Assembly (NCBI GenBank): GCA_000002435.2
Contig: CM018789.1
Source of the DNA: Giardia intestinalis
Taxonomy: Eukaryota
Direction: 5' to 3' (one strand)
DNA length: 64,000 nt
A model generated the notes under the pieces. It searched no databases. It had not been told where the DNA came from and saw only the letters and a program-made list of their open reading frames with translations. How positions within the stretch are numbered: position 1 is the stretch's first letter; every line of letters starts with the position of its first letter. The position numbers were made by a program, and so were the translations under genes. Positions 18,792-34,789 of the stretch are shown here, piece after piece.

Positions 18792-20897
18792 CTACGCTAG
18801 CTGCTTCTTAAGGACGGCCAGTTCATTAGAAAACCTCCCTATCTCGCTCGATAGCTCCGAATATAGAAACTCTCCTGTGGTATGGTCAAAGGTAATTGGC
18901 TGTGTGACCATACCCTTTTCTGTAAAGCGGGCGCTTCTTCGAGCGTTTATGAAGCTTTCTATTGGATTGTTCTTTGATTGTACGTTGTTTCGAGCGTCCA
19001 CTGATGATGTAGGGATACTGGCTAAGGATACGGTAGGCAGAGAGCCACCAGGGGGCTCCTTTTGCGATTCACATCGCGCCTCAAGGGGTATATCTGTGAG
19101 GCCACCATCTCTCCCTTTTATTGTAAAAGTTGGGCTTCTTCTATTATAGCGCATGTTAGTGGCCTTATTACCGCCACCCATCTCATTGCCAAAGTTCCAA
19201 TCTTTATTAGTTGTAGTAATTATATCAAGATCTACACTTTGTAGATTGTCTTTATACTTAGTGATGAAAAGAGGAGTCATCTTATTTTCAACATTATTTC
19301 CGATTGAGCTGGCCCCTAGTTTTTTACTAGAAGCCAATAGATGCCGTTGGTCTGCAACTATAACTCTTGATCTGCTAAAATCATTCTGGGCTCCTGTGTC
19401 TATATGTCTCAAAGCAGAAGCTGATGGTAAAGAGCTACTCATTCTCAAAGATTTAAGAGCAGATCTAGCATTCGATACAAGGACATCTTGCTCTTCTGTA
19501 GTCATGGGTTTGTTACGAAGATCAGAGCGGAGAGCAGAGGCCGACTTTAAAGTGCTAGGCACAGCGTCCATCGGGGTTGCTGTGCTACCTTGTAGTGCAT
19601 CAAGAATAACTGCATCCGGTATTCGATCTATTAAGGAGGGTAAGACATGACAAACCCTTTTAGTTAATCCTATAAGGCCTTGGGGTTCTTGCTGTTTCTC
19701 TTGGGGAAAACTGGATTGTTGATTGTGCCGCTCAATCGTAGCCCACTTAAGGGCATCATTTTTTGATACCTCGACCAGCTTGATTGATACCTTGTGATCT
19801 GCGCTAGTTTCACCAAGTTCAAGGGCTACACGCGATTGCTCAGTGAACGAGTCCTTATCTTTTTTACTAGAATGGTCGAGCAATGAGTTTGACGTAGAAT
19901 TAATTGACTGTTTGGCAGATAGACTCCTACTACTATCCGTAACGGCATCGATATGGGCTGCACTATTGCTGAAGCTTCGTGGAGCTGGAACCAAGATAGA
20001 CTTCCTCTGTAGTGTGTCGGAACTAATAGAGCGACGAGCGGGCATCTTCTGTGCTGCTTTAGATCTCAGTGTGGTGGAATGGGCAGAAGTAAGAGAGTCT
20101 GTTAGAGGCTTGATCCCAAAGTGTGCCAATACATTTGATACAGATAGGCCTGATTCCGCTGCATCTAAAAGGAAATTCTTCTTAGCATGCATTTGTGCAC
20201 CGACAAGACCTGCTCTATGCATAGTCGATAGTAAATTACTATAGTACCCATTGCACGTAAGAGGAGCTGTTCGGAAGGGAGTATCCATCGGGGTGATAAC
20301 CGAAGAGCTATAGGAGCAGTCGGCGGCGAGAAAGTCTTCGTGCTCTTTTTCATCTTCGTGGGCATCGACAAATGTAACACAGGGCTCGTGACCCAGTGAG
20401 CTCATTGCTGTCTGCGGTGCGTCCTTTATACCAGAGCTGATGCTTAGCATCCCAGTGGTGTTAAGCGTGTCTTCGTTGGCAGTGTTATCTAAAATAGTCG
20501 GATGAGGCGAGCTTATGCCTGTCTCCAAGTGCAGTCCAGGGTGCAATGCACTCTCCTCAGATAGTTTTACGGGCTCTGCTTCTCCAGGACACAGTGTGCT
20601 ATTATTGAGGCCATCGGAGCCACATGTCAAAATGCTGGAAAACCCGGATTCGCTGGTAGTGAGCGGAAAGGAGCGATCGGTCTGCAGGGTGGTATTTGTG
20701 ATTGTGCTCATCGAAATGGTGTTATGGTTTCCATCGAATATGACGGGCCCGAAGCTCTTATTTCTAGGAGGAGGAGCTGAATTTCCTCGAGCACCAGAAT
20801 CGACAAGCTGGTCTCGGAACACGTTCCCAATGGCAAGCCGCTCCAGAAGCATTTGGTCTGTTCGTGGCTGAGCGAGGGCCCGTTCAATCCGGAGCAT
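18792..20897 (-). CDS. Hypothetical Ser-rich protein; N-terminus trimmed to avoid tRNA overlap
   Basis: The track ORF extends to 21353 through a same-strand tRNA (21206-21289) and a GC-rich Pro/Arg-rich stretch, which is implausible as coding. The in-frame ATG at 20897 (MLRIERALAQPRTDQ...) is the preferred start. An alternative ATG at 21197 lies only 9 nt from the tRNA 3' end. Confidence 0.45.
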   Translation of the reverse strand: MLRIERALAQPRTDQMLLERLAIGNVFRDQLVDSGARGNSAPPPRNKSFGPVIFDGNHNTISMSTITNTTLQTDRSFPLTTSESGFSSILTCGSDGLNNSTLCPGEAEPVKLSEESALHPGLHLETGISSPHPTILDNTANEDTLNTTGMLSISSGIKDAPQTAMSSLGHEPCVTFVDAHEDEKEHEDFLAADCSYSSSVITPMDTPFRTAPLTCNGYYSNLLSTMHRAGLVGAQMHAKKNFLLDAAESGLSVSNVLAHFGIKPLTDSLTSAHSTTLRSKAAQKMPARRSISSDTLQRKSILVPAPRSFSNSAAHIDAVTDSSRSLSAKQSINSTSNSLLDHSSKKDKDSFTEQSRVALELGETSADHKVSIKLVEVSKNDALKWATIERHNQQSSFPQEKQQEPQGLIGLTKRVCHVLPSLIDRIPDAVILDALQGSTATPMDAVPSTLKSASALRSDLRNKPMTTEEQDVLVSNARSALKSLRMSSSLPSASALRHIDTGAQNDFSRSRVIVADQRHLLASSKKLGASSIGNNVENKMTPLFITKYKDNLQSVDLDIITTTNKDWNFGNEMGGGNKATNMRYNRRSPTFTIKGRDGGLTDIPLEARCESQKEPPGGSLPTVSLASIPTSSVDARNNVQSKNNPIESFINARRSARFTEKGMVTQPITFDHTTGEFLYSELSSEIGRFSNELAVLKKQLA

Positions 20898-21201
20898 CTC
20901 CTCGAGCTGCCCGGCATCCGAACTTCCTTGTGACTCGACATACGCGGCTCCAAACCTCCGGCGGCGGAAGGAATTCTGAGCCTGGGCTCCTGATGGGTAG
21001 CAGGAAGCGTACCTAGACGGTTCGGGATGCGCTAGGGAGTCAAGAGCAGTCGGGGACCTGGACCGGGGGACTAGCGCGGGGTGGAGCGGAACGGGCCGGC
21101 GCGCCACGGCTGGCGGGGCGGGGTGGCGAGGATGGAAGCGCGGGCTGACGTGGTCGACGCGGTGGCCGGGGGGAAGCCGGACGCGCGCAGGGGGCATTGG
21201 G

Positions 21202-21205
21202 AAAA
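21202..21205 (-). terminator. Oligo-T run immediately 3' of the tRNA (putative pol III terminator)
   Basis: aaaa at 21202-21205 on the plus strand gives TTTT directly after the tRNA discriminator base. It is short, only T4. Confidence 0.35.
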
Positions 21206-21289
21206 TCCTCGCTGCCGGATTCGAACCAGCGACCGTTCGGTGACTGCGGACTCTACAGCCGAACGCTCTACCAACTGAGCTAAGCGAGG
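21206..21289 (-). tRNA. tRNA-Tyr(GUA): tRNA-Tyr (anticodon GUA) with 11-nt intron 3' of position 37
   Basis: Folded by hand. Acceptor stem CCTCGCT/AGCGAGG with discriminator A; D-arm GCTC-AGTTGGTA-GAGC (A box); anticodon stem TTCGG/CCGAA; loop CTGTAGA with anticodon GTA; intron GTCCGCAGTCA at 21241-21251; variable loop CGGTC; T-arm GCTGG-TTCGAAT-CCGGC (B box GGTTCGAATCC). A TTTT run follows immediately on the coding strand. Very similar to canonical eukaryotic intron-containing tRNA-Tyr. Confidence 0.85.
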
Positions 21290-21355
21290 CCTGAGCGCCT
21301 TGACAGCGCCAAATAAACACAAGAGGGCTTGATCTGCAGGCTTGGTGACCCAAAA

Positions 21356-21919
21356 ATGGGCATCGCCCTCGGCCGGCTCATCCAGTCCCTCTTCGGCTCC
21401 CGCCAAGCACGCGTCGTCATGGTCGGGCTCGACGCCGCTGGGAAGACGACGATCCTCCATCAGATGGCCTACGGGATGACCGTGGAGACGATCCCGACGA
21501 TGGGCTTCACCCTGCAGACAGTAAAAAAGGGCAAGCTGGAGCTCGACGTGTGGGACATCGGTGGCCAGTCCGAGTTCCGCAATATCTGGGTTCACTACTA
21601 TGTCGATAAGCACGCTGCTATCTTCGTCGTCGATGCAGCAGACCACAGTAAAGCACGCATGGAGGAGGCTCGGACGGCTCTTGAGGGCGTACTAACAGCC
21701 CCAGAGCTCTCAGGTGTTCCCATCCTCATCCTCGCCAACAAGCAGGACATAGACGGTGCCATGTCCGGGGACGCCGTGGCAAGCATGTTAGACCTACAGA
21801 ACGTCAAGGATCACGAAGTGAAGGTCGTGGAAACGGTCGGAACTACGGGAAAGGGCCTTGACGACGCCCTTAAGTGGTTGAGCACGGCTATTGAGCGGCG
21901 CTGGAAGGAGACTAGCTAA
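21356..21919 (+). CDS. ARF-like small GTPase (ARL family, closest to the ARL2/ARL3 type)
   Basis: The track start at 21329 is upstream. The ATG at 21356 (aaaaATGggc) gives an ARF-type N-terminus MGIALGRLIQSLFG, a Gly2 myristoylation or amphipathic helix. Motifs: P-loop GLDAAGKTTIL, switch II WDIGGQ (compare ARL3 LNVWDIGGQ), NKQD, and SAT-like TVGTTGKGL. Confidence 0.8.
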   Translation: MGIALGRLIQSLFGSRQARVVMVGLDAAGKTTILHQMAYGMTVETIPTMGFTLQTVKKGKLELDVWDIGGQSEFRNIWVHYYVDKHAAIFVVDAADHSKARMEEARTALEGVLTAPELSGVPILILANKQDIDGAMSGDAVASMLDLQNVKDHEVKVVETVGTTGKGLDDALKWLSTAIERRWKETS

Positions 21920-30255: not shown

Positions 30256-33129
30256 ATGGCGAGAAAGTGTCGCAAAAAGGAGGCCTTAAGTGAATACAAG
30301 CGTCCTACTTTCATCCGGCAAATTCTCACCTGCCTCTACAAACAGTGGCTCGCCCTAATTCAAAGCCCTCAGTCCTACATCATTATTTTCGGGGTTCCTG
30401 TCCTCACAATCTTCGTTCTTTACATAGTTCAGACTGCGATCTACTCTCAGAGTTCGTTTCTCTCGTATGCCTCTACGACATCCAAAGACTTTATCGAGAG
30501 GTTCCCATCGGACACGATTGTCTGGCCCACATGTGCTAACAGTGACCCCGAATTGATTCAGAAGCGCTGTGTTGATTTTGCCGTCTGTATTGCTGATGCT
30601 TCTGACAAGGCTGATTCGGGGACCAAAGGTGCTACTGATCTCGCTCAGACCTACGAAATTGTTAACTTCCTCATTAAGAGACACAACCTGGAGACGGTTA
30701 TCATCTATGACGAAGATTGCAGCACGTTCTTTTACGACCTCTCGGACGTCCTGCGTCCAAATGATACGGTTGTAGCCTTAAAGTTTGGTGCTTTGGAAAA
30801 GGACTCGGGCCAGAAGCCGATCAGCATCTACTCGTCATCAATGCGCTATCAGCCAAAGCTGACGCCGGACACACGCTTTGTTCACTTTGATAGCAATCGG
30901 AATATGTTTGTACCCGTCATCAAAGGGATTTATGAGGCATTTGCAGTTGTATATCAAAACGAGGCTAGTTCGTTCACAATTCCATCACCAAAGCTTGTCT
31001 CCTGGCCGCACTTGGCCTATAATGAATATAAACCGATAACCATGCTTGTCGGTATGCTTGTTACCCTGTCCTCTGCTGCACTACTTAGCTTGCTTGCTTC
31101 AATGCTGCTTTCTGACCTGTCTCATCCGTGCTGCTCTCTTATGGAGTTTCTGGGGCTCACTGTGCCTGCGCGTCTGATAGCCTGGCTCATAATAGCTATC
31201 CCCGTGGCGGTGATCCAGCCGCTCATGCTCTACGTCTCAGGTATAGTGATGAAGATCCCTCTTTATTCTAGCCTCCCTGCAAGGTTAGGGTACTTTCCTC
31301 TGTTTGTCTTCTCTTTGACGCTCATCCCTACTGCGATGCTCATCTCCGTTTGCTGCAGCAAGAACATTGCGTACCCAGCACTGCCGACAAATAACCCTAC
31401 GTCCGTTGCTACGTACATCGTTGGAATTATTACTGTCATGAGCATTATTATTCTCGCCCCCATATCCTCCACGGTTTTCAAGACCAGTGATGTCCATTCT
31501 GTTTCTGCAAGTATAAACAGCATTTTTGGCGAAAAACAAGAGGTAGGATTGCCTGTCAAGGTTACCTCGTATATTTTGCGACAAATCAACTTTGCTGTTG
31601 GACTGGCATGCTGTTCACTTGGCATCATCGATAGCAAGAATAATCTTAACTCGTTGGGCATCAACGAAAAGGAACTTTGGTGGGTTTTATGGGACGGAGT
31701 GTGGATGCTTTTAGTTGCTATCTTAATCACATGGATTAAGATTTTCATAGCAAGGACACCTTCCTGTGGAAAATGCTGCGAATCTGCGGCCAGTAAGAAG
31801 GAAAGCGTATGTAAAACCGCGTCCTCTGTTTCTAAGTCAAAGAACTCGATTGCGTCACACTTAAAGGTGGGCACCCCCCAGTTACGACTACGATCGCTGT
31901 TTGAAGATGGCAACTCTATGCATCGTAGCTCTGCGGCAGGAGAAGGCAGCAGCACAGCGTTAGGATACTCGTCGTCAAATGCCGCCATAAACCCAATACA
32001 ATTGGAAGACTCGACCTCTAATAACCCAATCAGCCACTCAGAGATGGACAGACCCAGGAGTCTGCACAGACCAGGAGAAATGGAGGTTCTTAATATCCTT
32101 TCAGACCCCGTGCGCTTGAGCGACACGTTGATAATTCGCAATCTTGTGAAAAGGTACAAAGACTTTAAGGCACTGTCAGGAATAGATATGTACATTGGCC
32201 CTGGTGAATGTATATGCATTAATGGAATCAATGGGTCCGGCAAATCCACGTTGCTCCACTGTATTGTCCACCTGGAGCAGTACAGTAGCGGAAGGATCTC
32301 ATATCCCAAAACTATTGGGTTTGTTTCGCAGTATAATACGTTGTGGGATAATCTTACAGCATCCCAGCATATCAAGCTCATGTTGAGAGCGCGGGGATTA
32401 CCTACAACGGCTGCAAACGTCAGTGCTGCACTGGAAGAGGTCGGCTTGGGAGGTGTAGAGAAACGTAAGGTAGGACAGTTCTCCTACGGAATGAAGAGGC
32501 GCACTTGTCTCGCCATGGCCCTTGCTGGAAGGCCCTCTCTATTTCTGCTCGACGAGGTTACGTCTGGGGTCGATCCTGGCTCAAAGGAGAAAATTTGGGC
32601 AGTCATTCAAAGACAACAGCAACAGAGGTCTGCGGTTGTACTAACGTCGCACTCCATCCGCGAGTGTGAGATCCTGGGCACTCGGATAGTCATAATGGGC
32701 GCAGGAAAGGTGGCAGCTGTAGGGTCCTCAAGCGAGCTTAAAAACTCGCATGTATATGGCTATTCGTTAACTGTAGAAGCTGTGCATACGGATGGGATAA
32801 CGTCTGAACAAGTCATGCACAATATTCATGCATCCGGGGTCCTTGATGGTGTATCGGACGCCGCTGCAGCCCTTGCGCTGGCAGAGGCCGACTCTGTCCA
32901 CGGAAAGCCGAGGGTGGGGAAGATCAAGCTCCGCCAGGTCACGGGCAGGATCGTGATCGTGGAGCTTCCGAAGCTGCCCCTCCCGGCTGTGGCGGCTGTC
33001 TACCGGGGGATAAAGGCGCTGGAGGCAGTCAGATCTGTGGCCCTCCGCTCCCCCAACCTGGAGCCCATATTCACCGAGTACGCCCTCCTCAGCGAGAGGA
33101 AGGATGACGGGTCCCCGGTGTCCCTGTAG
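30256..33129 (+). CDS. ABC transporter, ABCA-like half transporter (TMD-NBD)
   Basis: ATG at 30256. N-terminal multi-TM domain, then the NBD: Walker A GINGSGKSTLLHCIV, Q-loop, ABC signature FSYGMKRRTCLAMALAG (ABCA-type YSGGMxRK), Walker B LFLLDEVTSGVDP, H-loop TSHSI, and the LEPIFTEY (LEEVF-like) C-terminal motif. The last ~280 bp are GC-rich and overlap the 3' end of the next gene. Confidence 0.8.
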   Translation: MARKCRKKEALSEYKRPTFIRQILTCLYKQWLALIQSPQSYIIIFGVPVLTIFVLYIVQTAIYSQSSFLSYASTTSKDFIERFPSDTIVWPTCANSDPELIQKRCVDFAVCIADASDKADSGTKGATDLAQTYEIVNFLIKRHNLETVIIYDEDCSTFFYDLSDVLRPNDTVVALKFGALEKDSGQKPISIYSSSMRYQPKLTPDTRFVHFDSNRNMFVPVIKGIYEAFAVVYQNEASSFTIPSPKLVSWPHLAYNEYKPITMLVGMLVTLSSAALLSLLASMLLSDLSHPCCSLMEFLGLTVPARLIAWLIIAIPVAVIQPLMLYVSGIVMKIPLYSSLPARLGYFPLFVFSLTLIPTAMLISVCCSKNIAYPALPTNNPTSVATYIVGIITVMSIIILAPISSTVFKTSDVHSVSASINSIFGEKQEVGLPVKVTSYILRQINFAVGLACCSLGIIDSKNNLNSLGINEKELWWVLWDGVWMLLVAILITWIKIFIARTPSCGKCCESAASKKESVCKTASSVSKSKNSIASHLKVGTPQLRLRSLFEDGNSMHRSSAAGEGSSTALGYSSSNAAINPIQLEDSTSNNPISHSEMDRPRSLHRPGEMEVLNILSDPVRLSDTLIIRNLVKRYKDFKALSGIDMYIGPGECICINGINGSGKSTLLHCIVHLEQYSSGRISYPKTIGFVSQYNTLWDNLTASQHIKLMLRARGLPTTAANVSAALEEVGLGGVEKRKVGQFSYGMKRRTCLAMALAGRPSLFLLDEVTSGVDPGSKEKIWAVIQRQQQQRSAVVLTSHSIRECEILGTRIVIMGAGKVAAVGSSSELKNSHVYGYSLTVEAVHTDGITSEQVMHNIHASGVLDGVSDAAAALALAEADSVHGKPRVGKIKLRQVTGRIVIVELPKLPLPAVAAVYRGIKALEAVRSVALRSPNLEPIFTEYALLSERKDDGSPVSL

Positions 33130-34495
33130 AGGGGCTAGTGTGAACATGTTTTTCGAGGTAGTCGTCAATGCCCAGCGTCTCCCCGCTGGTGGTCAACACC
33201 CGTGTGTTCTCTCCGCAGACGGCCGGGTTGATGTGCGGGTTGTGGAGCTCCGAGATCTGGCTCGAGCATGCCTGGGCAGGGTCGCCGGAGGAGGAGAGGG
33301 CGCCGTCCCAGAACTCGTTCCCCGGGAGCGCGTTCCCGTCCCACGCGTACGAGACCACCAGGAGCTTGCCTCTGTGCTCCGCCGGCAGGCTGTCGTGGGG
33401 GTTTCGCCTGGAGAAGCGCACGCGGATGTGCTCGTAGGTCGCCCGGGGGAGGGCCTGGGCGGTGAACCACGCAAAGTCCAGGTCGCTTATGCCCGCGAGA
33501 CGCCCTGCCAGCCTTGCGAGGCAGCGGGCGAAGGTCTCGAGGAAGACGGGCTCCTGGGCCGGAGACAGCGCCCAGACGCCCAGCCCGATCCCGACAACGT
33601 GAACGTAGGCCCTCGTGCCGGCGCGGGTGGCGCGGGAGTGTGCCTCCAGCAAAAGGGTCTCGAAGGAGATCGCCAGCCTTGCAGAGTACGCCTGCCTATT
33701 CAGATACAGGTCCCCGATCGGAAGGTACTTGTCGGAATCTGCGCTGCTCCTAACCCGGTCGTACAGCGGAAGGCACGGGAGACCGTAGAGCTCGGCCCAC
33801 ATCTGCCTCCACGAAGCGGCCGCCGTGGGCTCTCCGGAGGGCTCTCCATACCCGCGCGCCCTAACGTTCTGGTCCTTGGAGACGACGACCTCCTCCCACT
33901 CCATGACGCCCTCCTTTTCCAGGCGAGGGCCGATGAGCCCGATCACAACCCCGTGGCTCTGGACGGCCTCGCGAGACGGCACCGGAACGCCCCTGTTCTC
34001 CCGGGACCCGTTGTTGATAAACACGCTGTACGAGCTGACCGACAGGAGCGCAGAGAGCTTGATCTCGTCGTAGGTCAAGCGCTCTGGCAGCGAGCCCCCG
34101 CCCCAGCCGCGCCCCCGCGTGCCGTCCAGTAGCGTGAAGGAGTCCTCGCAGCCGTAGAAGGATACCGCTCTTTTTGTGAGGAGGCGGTGGACAAGCGCGG
34201 TGACGGTCATGCCGCGATACAGCTCCCTCTCGGAAGGCGTTCCGTGGCGGGCCTTGTGGCGGAGGAAGCTGGCGTAGAGGCGCACCGCAGACTCGTGAAG
34301 CAGGGGGTACGCGGACTCGGCGAAGGCCGACAGCTGCTGCGGAGAGGCCACGCCGCGCTGGAGAAGGTACTGGCAGCGGACAGTCTGGACCGGAAAGGGC
34401 ACGGAAAACCGGGCGCTCCTGGACATGAGCGCCGCCAGCAGGGGGCATTGATCCGCCCGTGGCTGCTCTCCCAGCGGCTCTGCAGTGCTAATCAT
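33089..34495 (-). CDS. GC-rich gene encoding a 468-aa protein; possible macrodomain / bacterial-type PARG (DUF2263)-like ADP-ribose-processing enzyme
   Basis: It is the longest and only compositionally protein-like frame in a ~68% GC block. The opposite-strand ORFs there are R/G/P/A junk. The track start at 34543 is GTG. The ATG at 34495 (caagataaaATGatt) gives MISTAEPLGEQ.... Macrodomain-like motifs in the right order: RGRGWGGGSLPERLTYDEI (Gly-rich loop, GGG-X8-[QY][ED]E) and, about 165 aa later, YVHVVGIGLGVWALSPAQEPVFLETFARCL (compare GAWGCGVFxNDPAQVAxAFA of microbial PARGs). Assignment is from recalled motifs only. Confidence 0.5.
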   Translation of the reverse strand: MISTAEPLGEQPRADQCPLLAALMSRSARFSVPFPVQTVRCQYLLQRGVASPQQLSAFAESAYPLLHESAVRLYASFLRHKARHGTPSERELYRGMTVTALVHRLLTKRAVSFYGCEDSFTLLDGTRGRGWGGGSLPERLTYDEIKLSALLSVSSYSVFINNGSRENRGVPVPSREAVQSHGVVIGLIGPRLEKEGVMEWEEVVVSKDQNVRARGYGEPSGEPTAAASWRQMWAELYGLPCLPLYDRVRSSADSDKYLPIGDLYLNRQAYSARLAISFETLLLEAHSRATRAGTRAYVHVVGIGLGVWALSPAQEPVFLETFARCLARLAGRLAGISDLDFAWFTAQALPRATYEHIRVRFSRRNPHDSLPAEHRGKLLVVSYAWDGNALPGNEFWDGALSSSGDPAQACSSQISELHNPHINPAVCGENTRVLTTSGETLGIDDYLEKHVHTSPSTGTPGTRHPSSR

Positions 34496-34789
34496 TTTAT
34501 CTTGGCGCTCACGGTCCCGAGGCGCCAAGCTGTGGGGTGCCACGACGGCAGAGGAGGCGCACAGCTCTGACCGCCTCTAGGGCACAGGGTTGCAAATATT
34601 GTAGGTTTGTGTAGAAGGCGGAATTACCTAAGCCGCATTAGATAATCCGTGATCCATTTCTCATCTTGCCAGATAGTGCTACTTTGGATCAGGAGATGGA
34701 CAAAGTCCAGCATTAGTTCGTACCAGCAGCACAATATATGATGGCCATTGTATAGAGTACTGCCCTAAAACACAATCTATTCCAGTAGG

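Follow-up and report, generated by a model that had tools for sequence, protein, structure and literature searches.

The present analysis concerns a guanine- plus cytosine-rich (GC-rich) island, and the gene it carries, in a stretch of 64,000 nucleotides (nt) of Giardia intestinalis (GenBank assembly GCA_000002435.2, contig CM018789.1), hereafter referred to as the window. The island begins inside the 3' end of an ABC-transporter gene and contains, on the opposite strand, a gene for a protein of 468 amino acids (aa), GL50803_0061593. The protein was found to belong to the MavL-like class of macrodomain ADP-ribosylhydrolases, and the island to coincide with one copy of a repeat present at two loci. 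The features of the locus are given below, with the evidence for each in brackets.

30256 to 33129, plus strand: ABC-transporter gene, 957 aa, the syntenic anchor of the locus (open reading frame, ORF; orthologues and their contexts).
32849 to 34593, no strand assigned: GC-rich island, corresponding to one of the two copies of a dispersed ~1.75-kb repeat (step in GC at either end; contig borders).
32849 to 33129, plus strand: last ~280 nt of the native ABC-transporter gene, within the repeat (synonymous sites driven towards GC, protein conserved).
33089 to 34495, minus strand: coding sequence of a predicted MavL-like (DUF4804) macrodomain ADP-ribosylhydrolase, 468 aa, GL50803_0061593 (ORF; PF16062; exact protein match).
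33308 to 33343, minus strand: catalytic loop WDGNALPGNEFW, residues 385-396 (translation; motif of PMC10951314).
33404 to 33406, minus strand: codon 364, CGA (Arg) here and TGA in GL50803_0017273 (short-read contigs; annotated protein).
33572 to 33598, minus strand: diphosphate-binding loop VVGIGLGVW, residues 300-308 (translation; motif of PMC10951314).
34049 to 34075, minus strand: conserved block TYDEIKLSA, residues 141-149 (alignment).
34079 to 34111, minus strand: variable, indel-rich loop with GWGGG, residues 129-139 (alignment; low confidence in the AlphaFold2 model).
34496 to 34593, minus strand: upstream non-coding part of the repeat (GC 0.65; A-rich initiator-like end ...GATAAAATG).

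The 468-aa product is identical to the hypothetical protein KAE8301407.1 / XP_037901573.1 of G. intestinalis WB, and the annotations of WB, P15, DH and assemblage B already list the gene as coding for a hypothetical protein. The full-length WB copy was missing from the first annotation of that genome and came to light in 2013 as a newly reported transcribed ORF; PMC3792122 describes a transcribed, then-unannotated ORF of exactly 1407 nt in WB, a 'gene repeat' similar to GL50803_17273. With a ratio of nonsynonymous to synonymous substitution rates (dN/dS) of 0.14-0.37, GL50803_0061593 is apparently a functional gene under purifying selection. Full-text literature searches returned no paper that treats the Giardia gene as a macrodomain enzyme, and nothing was found in the literature searches on arginine ADP-ribosylation or macrodomains in Giardia. 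The first-pass annotation of the window, made from the letters alone, had offered the gene as a new component for the lineage; this holds only in part, as a hypothetical protein had been annotated before, and no paper was found on the macrodomain role. The protein adds a member to an enzyme class that is already known and was characterised recently, and whose presence in this lineage has gone undiscussed.

A search of Pfam assigned the protein to PF16062, 'ADP-ribosylhydrolase MavL-like' (formerly DUF4804), with 461.4 bits, the cutoff being 27 (E=4.3e-138), over positions 3-447 of the 448 of the profile. The PF24754 MavL profile was matched at E=0.09 only; no match to poly(ADP-ribose) glycohydrolase (PARG), DUF2263 or Macro-family profiles was obtained at E<=10 in Pfam, and NCBIfam gave nothing relevant, with no PARG, DUF2263 or TIGR02452 match at E<=10. 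The solved structures nearest in sequence are those of Drosophila CG3568 and CG2909 (PDB 8dmu and 8dmt; E~1e-89). A structure model was built with AlphaFold2 (predicted local distance difference test, pLDDT, 80.8; predicted template modelling score, pTM, 0.85), in which the ligand-binding loops are of low confidence. A Foldseek search with the model retrieved 8dmu and 8dmt at E~1e-41 with template modelling (TM) scores of 0.82-0.83, followed by Larg1/Lpg0081 and MavL at E 1e-11 to 1e-16, and no PARG structure was present among the significant matches. The predicted model has a macrodomain fold with a class-specific insertion that superimposes on CG3568, CG2909 and MavL. Membership of the MacroD type was ruled out, as neither a Macro hidden Markov model (HMM) match at E<=10 in Pfam, nor the motif pair Nx6GG[VLI] and G[VIA][YF]G, nor a structural neighbour of that type was found.

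The class is defined by the motifs [V/I/L]xGxGxGx[F/W/Y] and WDxx[S/A]xPGN[D/E][F/Y][F/W/Y], and lacks both the GGG-x6-8-QEE motif of PARG and the MacroD motifs (PMC10951314). Both class motifs are present in the Giardia protein, as the diphosphate-binding loop, in which G302, G304, L305, G306 and W308 are invariant in an alignment of 16 sequences, and as the catalytic loop, in which W385, N388, P391, G392, N393 and W396 are invariant in the same alignment and D386 and E394 occupy the motif positions of MavL D315 and D323. Y142, D143, E144, K146 and A149 are invariant over the Giardia and arthropod homologues, within a block that reads SYDEIKLSA in the class. The positions of CG3568 R209, F236 and E237 are conserved in Giardia, where the alignment places R165, L192 and E193. 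The loop with GWGGG varies in sequence and length, with GWPSDPSAD and GWDNSHDIE in other Giardia orthologues, and the arthropod homologues differ there too.

Arginine-specific mono-ADP-ribosylhydrolase activity has been shown for MavL, Larg1, CG2909 and CG3568 (PMC10951314). By homology with these, GL50803_0061593 is predicted to remove mono-ADP-ribose from arginine side chains. The VVGIGLGVW loop (G302-W308) would hold the ADP-ribose diphosphate and R165 would bind the adenine; the distal ribose and the arginine would be placed under L192/E193 and the loop with D386/E394, and the ribose-arginine bond would be cut by water that the alpha-phosphate activates, which is the mechanism given for MavL and CG3568 (PMC10951314).

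In the first-pass annotation the protein had been read as a bacterial-type PARG of the DUF2263 fold. The two peptides on which that reading relied are present (GRGWGGGSLPERLTYDE at 34064-34114 and VVGIGLGVW at 33572-33598), its broader prediction of a macrodomain-type ADP-ribose-processing enzyme is upheld by PF16062, the fold and the motifs, and the later of the two blocks is indeed the diphosphate-binding loop. The narrower assignment was not supported. The HMM check in Pfam and NCBIfam was empty at E<=10 for the families named and gave PF16062 at 461 bits instead, and the fold check led to 8dmu and 8dmt with no significant PARG match. The GWGGG taken for the GGG motif lies in an indel-rich loop that is unconserved even among the Giardia orthologues, the YDE taken for a degenerate QEE is part of the class-invariant SYDEIKLSA block, and the catalytic loop had been missed.

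The GC content in 300-bp windows is 0.62-0.70 over ~32800 to ~34600, against 0.42-0.50 on both sides and a mean of 0.473 (standard deviation 0.042) in the rest of the window. With 200-bp windows and a threshold of 0.60, the island extends over 32791-34630 (1840 bp, GC 0.649). In 100-bp bins, the left edge rises from 0.47 through 0.58 to 0.67 over 32701-33000, and the right edge falls from 0.65 to 0.44 at 34600/34601. Within the island lie the ABC 3' fragment, the MavL-like gene and the ~98 nt upstream of that gene. The GC content of the MavL-like gene is 0.662, with 0.638, 0.512 and 0.838 at the first, second and third codon positions (GC1, GC2 and GC3), and GC3 in the genes flanking it is ~0.46-0.56. 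The compositional part of the first-pass annotation was thus largely borne out: an island of ~1.7 kb exists (~65% GC against a background of ~47%), the ORF confirms the 468-aa minus-strand gene at 33089-34495, the shift starts inside the ABC 3' end as seen in the 100-bp bins, and the GC3 comparison with the neighbours, which had been proposed there, gave a clear difference. The statement that every frame is open was too strong, as stops number 3-17 in each of the six frames of the island, fewer than the 23-58 of non-coding frames in control stretches; open runs reach 94-489 codons, depending on the frame. The antisense and other ORFs of the island (33104-34132 on the plus strand, 33861-34448 on the minus strand, and others) were rejected as genes, because their codon-position GC (GC1/GC2/GC3 of 0.85/0.51/0.64, for example) mirrors that of the true frame; GC-rich DNA is expected to have such open frames. 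The ABC-transporter and MavL-like genes are convergent and overlap at their 3' ends by 41 nt (33089-33129), an overlap that is kept in L002, L003, L004 and L005, contigs from other Giardia sources.

The island has a counterpart elsewhere in the genome. The protein cluster at 90% identity has two WB members, GL50803_0061593 (468 aa) and GL50803_0017273 (363 aa), and the P15 cluster has two proteins, GLP15_5170 and GLP15_5230. In DH two distinct copies are present, the annotated DHA2_150809 and, at the ABC locus, an intact ORF of 468 aa (L009, AHGT01000009.1, 8834-10240, inside a 1660-bp stretch with no recorded gene call). The P15 contig L001 carries a gene copy and a 95-codon ABC 3' fragment; its homology with the window ends at 32860, beyond which lies unrelated AT-rich DNA with the CMS1, Kri1 and FKBP genes, and it was thus recognised as a second locus of the repeat, a reading that replaced that of a rearrangement or misassembly at the ABC locus. 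The short-read contig L005 (1745 bp) corresponds exactly to 34593..32849, and L014 begins at 34593. At both loci the GC content drops at the repeat border, from 0.66 to 0.46 at window position 32860 and from 0.61 to 0.42 at L001:1406. Three of the four borders were seen, the upstream border of the second locus lying outside the data. The contig breaks behave as those of a collapsed repeat. As regards contig ends in general, the Logan contigs L004 and L005 consist of the island alone, L001 begins inside the MavL-like gene, the GS contig L008 (AHHH01000015.1) stops 586 bp past the ABC stop codon, and a metagenome contig from ENA ends within the island, 151 bp past that codon.

The copies group according to genome. 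In the 268 residues that they share, the two copies within a genome differ at 7 positions in WB, 5 in DH and 1 in P15, as against 8-13 between WB and DH (A1/A2) and 34-41 between assemblages A and E, and some substitutions are specific to DH and occur in both of its copies. In a comparison with another A1 isolate, all 29 nucleotide differences lie inside 33155-34558, with 0 in 6.5 kb of flank. The change at codon 364 (R364*) ends the protein after 363 aa, before the catalytic loop is reached, giving a variant that lacks this loop; it was found in 60 short-read contigs of assemblage A isolates (L012-L015), in which the island differs from that of the window by 1.6-2.1% and the flanks are 100% identical to it. 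Recent lineage-specific changes are mostly from strong to weak base pairs (S>W; 28 vs 5 and 55 vs 28).

The orthologous loci of six other lineages of the G. duodenalis complex were compared, with the assemblage A2 isolate DH being 98.05% identical to the window over 14.9 kb. The island was found in variants of assemblage A, in P15, which is of assemblage E, and in B-type sequences, with a gene GC of 0.66-0.69 and a GC3 of 0.83-0.89, the latter being 0.89 in B, 0.86 in E and 0.83 in A. In L002 and L003, the orthologue occupies the same site, convergent and overlapping with the same ABC gene and with the same next neighbours, and its GC content (0.41 and 0.48, respectively) matches that of the surroundings; the contigs of both run across the borders of the A-type repeat. 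The ABC protein of these two is 85-88% identical to that of WB and they group together; the dog assemblages C and D also group together (PMC6939161), and L002 and L003, which behave like these, presumably correspond to them. The locus of L002 (Logan SRR17450160), which may be of assemblage D, is markedly AT-richer as a whole, with a GC of 0.40 and a GC3 of 0.31-0.40, against ~0.47 in the other lineages.

The enrichment extends beyond the MavL-like gene. The 100 nt upstream of its ATG have a GC content of 0.64-0.65 in the WB, Ay and B-type loci, against 0.32 in L002 and 0.25 in L003. The final 58 codons of the ABC gene encode a sequence with 95% identity to L002 and L003, yet their GC3 is 0.84, as against 0.43 and 0.66 in those lineages, and in G. 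muris the ABC C-terminus is conserved with no GC3 spike. The share of Gly, Ala, Arg and Pro (GARP) residues is 0.33 in the MavL-like protein of the window, 0.19-0.23 in that of L002 and L003, and 0.21-0.31 in the arthropod homologues. The identity of the gene among the Giardia assemblages goes down to 65-75%, and amino-acid changes polarised with insect outgroups stood at 7 vs 7, a count from few sites. Since the native ABC 3' end, conserved in protein, is also enriched, the GC enrichment arose in place: native Giardia sequence was made GC-rich where it lies, and, as the G. muris ABC gene has no spike, this took place within the G. duodenalis complex.

The borders of the repeat are those of the GC shift, the copies cluster by genome, the locus is syntenic, and the high GC is restricted to certain lineages. 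GC-biased gene conversion between the two copies is probably the best explanation of the island. In such a course of events, a 1.75-kb segment comprising the ABC 3' end, the gene and ~100 nt upstream would have been duplicated to a second locus before assemblages A and E split, the two copies would have been kept alike by ectopic gene conversion, and a bias of the conversion towards GC would have raised the GC content at all classes of sites, strictly within the repeat.

Several GC-rich patches occur in the window, of which the island is the largest. The three smaller ones (320-810 bp, GC 0.59-0.64) are located inside a cathepsin-C-like protease gene (4971-5420), at the start of the ORF 13531-14511 (13551-13870), and over a divergent promoter and the 5' part of an Arf GTPase gene (20791-21600). 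Repeats were looked for within the window for these three patches and none was found there, and internal repeats were dropped as their cause. The Arf-family GTPase gene (21356-21919) has a GC3 of 0.75, well over its neighbours, which fits the preference of highly expressed Giardia genes for GC-ending codons, or the position of the gene in the patch 20791-21600.

Regarding the source of the gene, the named non-Giardia proteins among the best 120 matches are all pancrustacean, with 40-51% identity. Unnamed representatives nearby come from Orthoptera, Phasmatodea, decapods, amphipods and one copepod, and a Babeliales bacterium and the protist Rhytidocystis are among the members of deeper clades; an exhaustive search found 1641 clusters at 50% identity in the family. 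In a neighbour-joining (NJ) tree of 245 domain sequences, the Giardia sequences are monophyletic and lie inside the hexapods beside cockroach, stick-insect and orthopteran sequences, and a group of Giardia with polyneopterans only was recovered in 71-97% of the bootstrap replicates, depending on the distance correction. Maximum likelihood (ML) placements were calculated with a self-written program (BLOSUM62-derived exchangeabilities, +F, +G4, full branch-length optimisation) on 52 taxa and 417 columns. The best placement is as sister to the stick-insect clade (difference in log-likelihood, dlnL, 0; support from resampling of estimated log-likelihoods, RELL, 0.73), followed by the hexapod stem (dlnL -7.7 +- 9.6, RELL 0.19), and RELL is 0.00 for a placement outside Hexapoda+Malacostraca (dlnL -46 +- 17) as well as for one with the bacterial-like clade (dlnL -109 +- 24). 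The same placement was obtained when only the two normal-GC Giardia sequences were used, so that it is no artefact of composition.

In G. muris and a muris-like lineage, the order at the site is L7Ae-ABC, with DNA polymerase B following within ~20 bp, and no homologue of the MavL-like gene was found in either within +-8 kb of the ABC site. The synteny between G. duodenalis and G. muris (a 352-aa gene, L7Ae and ABC) ends at the ABC 3' end (L007, CM016927.1, 10904-10925). Beyond this point the MavL-like gene follows in G. duodenalis and DNA polymerase B in G. muris, which puts the MavL-like gene at a breakpoint of synteny. A scan of 185,579 prokaryotic genomes with the single protein, which reaches close relatives only, found no relative. 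The G. duodenalis lineage would most likely have gained the gene from an arthropod, hexapod-like source, just downstream of the conserved ABC gene. A transfer from arthropod to Giardia, of which we infer the direction and the donor, is favoured on balance, in a provisional manner that befits a home-made analysis.

The family shows further variety. Tandem two-domain proteins of 1043-1063 aa occur in Orthoptera and Timema, and very long fusions reach 2763 aa and include a 1345-aa Babeliales protein (homologues P0121, P0123, P0014, P0124 and P0145). The homologue of the ostracod Darwinula groups with the bacterial-like clade, apart from the other crustaceans, which hints at further transfers.

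The source proposed in the first-pass annotation, a bacterial-type PARG (DUF2263) gained recently from a GC-rich bacterium and still foreign in its composition, accords with the abruptness of the island, with the macrodomain fold and with the resemblance in core topology between the class and Thermomonospora curvata PARG (PMC10951314). It is nevertheless hardly credible, since PARG, DUF2263 and TIGR02452 profiles and PARG structures are missing from the HMM (E<=10) and significant Foldseek matches, the GGG loop is unconserved, the nearest relatives are arthropod, the nesting in a bacterial-like clade is rejected and the prokaryotic scan of close relatives was empty. Moreover, the high GC is no mark of foreign DNA here, as orthologues at the same locus have ordinary GC and the island takes in native ABC coding sequence and a non-coding flank, coinciding with a two-copy repeat that evolves in concert. 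Of the lateral transfer suggested there, acquisition as such stays plausible, given the arthropod-like placement, and the bacterial source falls. Vertical descent of an ancient eukaryotic gene, lost in most lineages and resembling insect genes through slow evolution, would suit a family that is patchy but wide, with its 1641 clusters taking in an apicomplexan-like protist and bacteria, and it is compatible with the hexapod-stem placement in ML. We consider it unlikely: Giardia lies within or next to the hexapods with the malacostracans further off, a placement outside Hexapoda+Malacostraca is rejected at ~2.7 standard errors, the gene is absent at the G. muris syntenic site, no other metamonad accompanies Giardia among the 266 best homologues, and 50% identity to insects is unusually high for a gene that is itself 65-75% identical among the Giardia assemblages.

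Two other accounts address the composition alone. Selection on codon usage or expression level could draw on the Arf GTPase gene, which also has a high GC3 (0.75) and likewise favours C over G in the third codon position; it is rejected as most improbable, because non-coding DNA, the convergent neighbour's 3' end and the amino-acid composition, along with GC1 and GC2, are shifted too. Further, at a second, unrelated locus the enrichment ends where the repeat ends, and it is missing from orthologues under similar or stronger purifying selection. A GC-rich foreign or mobile segment inserted at two loci and now ameliorating, with the decay already finished in the normal-GC lineages, would explain why recent substitutions are biased S>W, why GC3 falls from B through E to A, and why the GC borders are repeat borders. 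The repeated unit, however, holds the native ABC 3' end, which is conserved in G. muris, L002 and L003, all without the spike, so that at least this part became GC-rich in place; the closest donors, the insects, are ordinary in amino-acid composition, and the clustering of copies by genome indicates ongoing exchange. Amelioration is accordingly regarded as improbable.

The preferred explanation, that of a functional MavL-like gene from an arthropod-like source lying in a duplicated repeat under GC-biased conversion, is given a probability of about 0.7. Several points weigh against it. The ML program was home-made and worked on a fixed NJ backbone, and a position inside the hexapods is not separated from one as sister to them. 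The absence of the gene from G. muris and other metamonads was judged from the syntenic site and the lists of top matches. The second locus is seen directly in P15 only, and on one side only. The WB short-read contigs put the R364* variant within the flanks of the ABC locus, which was attributed to repeat collapse, allelic variation being the alternative. The S>W bias of recent changes fits mutation awaiting conversion and also an island that is now decaying; the GC bias of the conversion is likewise something that we infer, and the enzymatic function of the Giardia members is a prediction from homology. A fuller account, in which an insect-like gene was captured after the G. muris split, was duplicated and driven to ~66% GC by biased ectopic conversion, and serves in protection against arginine-ADP-ribosylating toxins of gut bacteria or in the reversal of an endogenous modification, is put forward tentatively, the odds being somewhat against all of its parts holding together.

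A conserved and transcribed Giardia member extends the range of the MavL-like class, and implies that arginine mono-ADP-ribosylation, endogenous or by the toxins of gut bacteria, matters to the parasite; a defence against arginine-specific toxins of gut bacteria is a speculation. The arthropod origin, if confirmed, would be an unusual transfer from an animal to a protist. The island provides a natural experiment, with ordinary GC in two lineages and ~66% in those whose two copies undergo concerted evolution, and bears on recombination and biased gene conversion in Giardia; if the explanation is true, it would be a locus-level demonstration of biased conversion, and hence of recombination between copies, in a putatively asexual parasite. 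In practical terms, short-read and 454 assemblies are broken up by the island, gene calling passed over the copy at the ABC locus of DH just as the full-length copy was left out of the first WB annotation, and composition alone proved a misleading mark of foreign DNA in the case of this island.

Comparison with known systems places the Giardia protein closest to CG3568 and CG2909 (PDB 8DMU and 8DMT), with which it shares the Pfam family, a full-length alignment at 36-43% identity, both motifs, the fold (TM 0.82-0.83), an N-terminal helical region and the beta-insertion; the adenine-stacking Arg and the distal-ribose Phe/Glu of CG3568 fall on R165 and L192/E193. It differs from them in that its host is a diplomonad protist and not an arthropod, an ~11-residue segment before the last core strands is missing, the variable loop is shorter, and assemblages A, B and E have a GARP-rich form of the protein. 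MavL and Larg1/Lpg0081 of Legionella pneumophila belong to the same macrodomain class and have the same motifs, and their chemistry is probably shared; at ~15% identity and TM scores of 0.5-0.6 they are more distant, the Giardia protein being much closer to the arthropod subgroup, and they are secreted bacterial effectors that reverse the arginine ADP-ribosylation of ubiquitin or of ADP/ATP translocases. The PARG of T. curvata is of the same macrodomain superfamily, with a similar core topology (PMC10951314) and a Gly-rich diphosphate loop that Giardia also has; unlike it, the Giardia protein has no PARG HMM match, significant Foldseek match or GGG-x6-8-QEE, and its catalytic loop is of the form WDxxAxPGNEFW. 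The MavL-like class is reported to act on mono-ADP-ribosyl-arginine only (PMC10951314).

The island itself resembles the multi-copy ribosomal DNA (rDNA) that evolves in concert under GC-biased conversion, being homogenised in each genome and raised in GC at coding, synonymous and non-coding sites within the tract only. Histone and other gene families are further cases of GC-biased gene conversion. The Giardia repeat differs from rDNA in consisting of two dispersed copies of a single-gene segment with recent differences that run S>W, and in that the GC bias of its conversion is presumed. For the rRNA genes of Giardia, GC-biased gene conversion has been suggested (PMC10123126, citing Escobar et al. 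2011). As for the transfer, PMC3337132 describes arthropod-derived genes in microsporidia, where a parasite gene is likewise nested in an arthropod clade; the two settings differ, since G. duodenalis is a parasite of the gut lumen of mammals and does not live inside the cells of arthropods.

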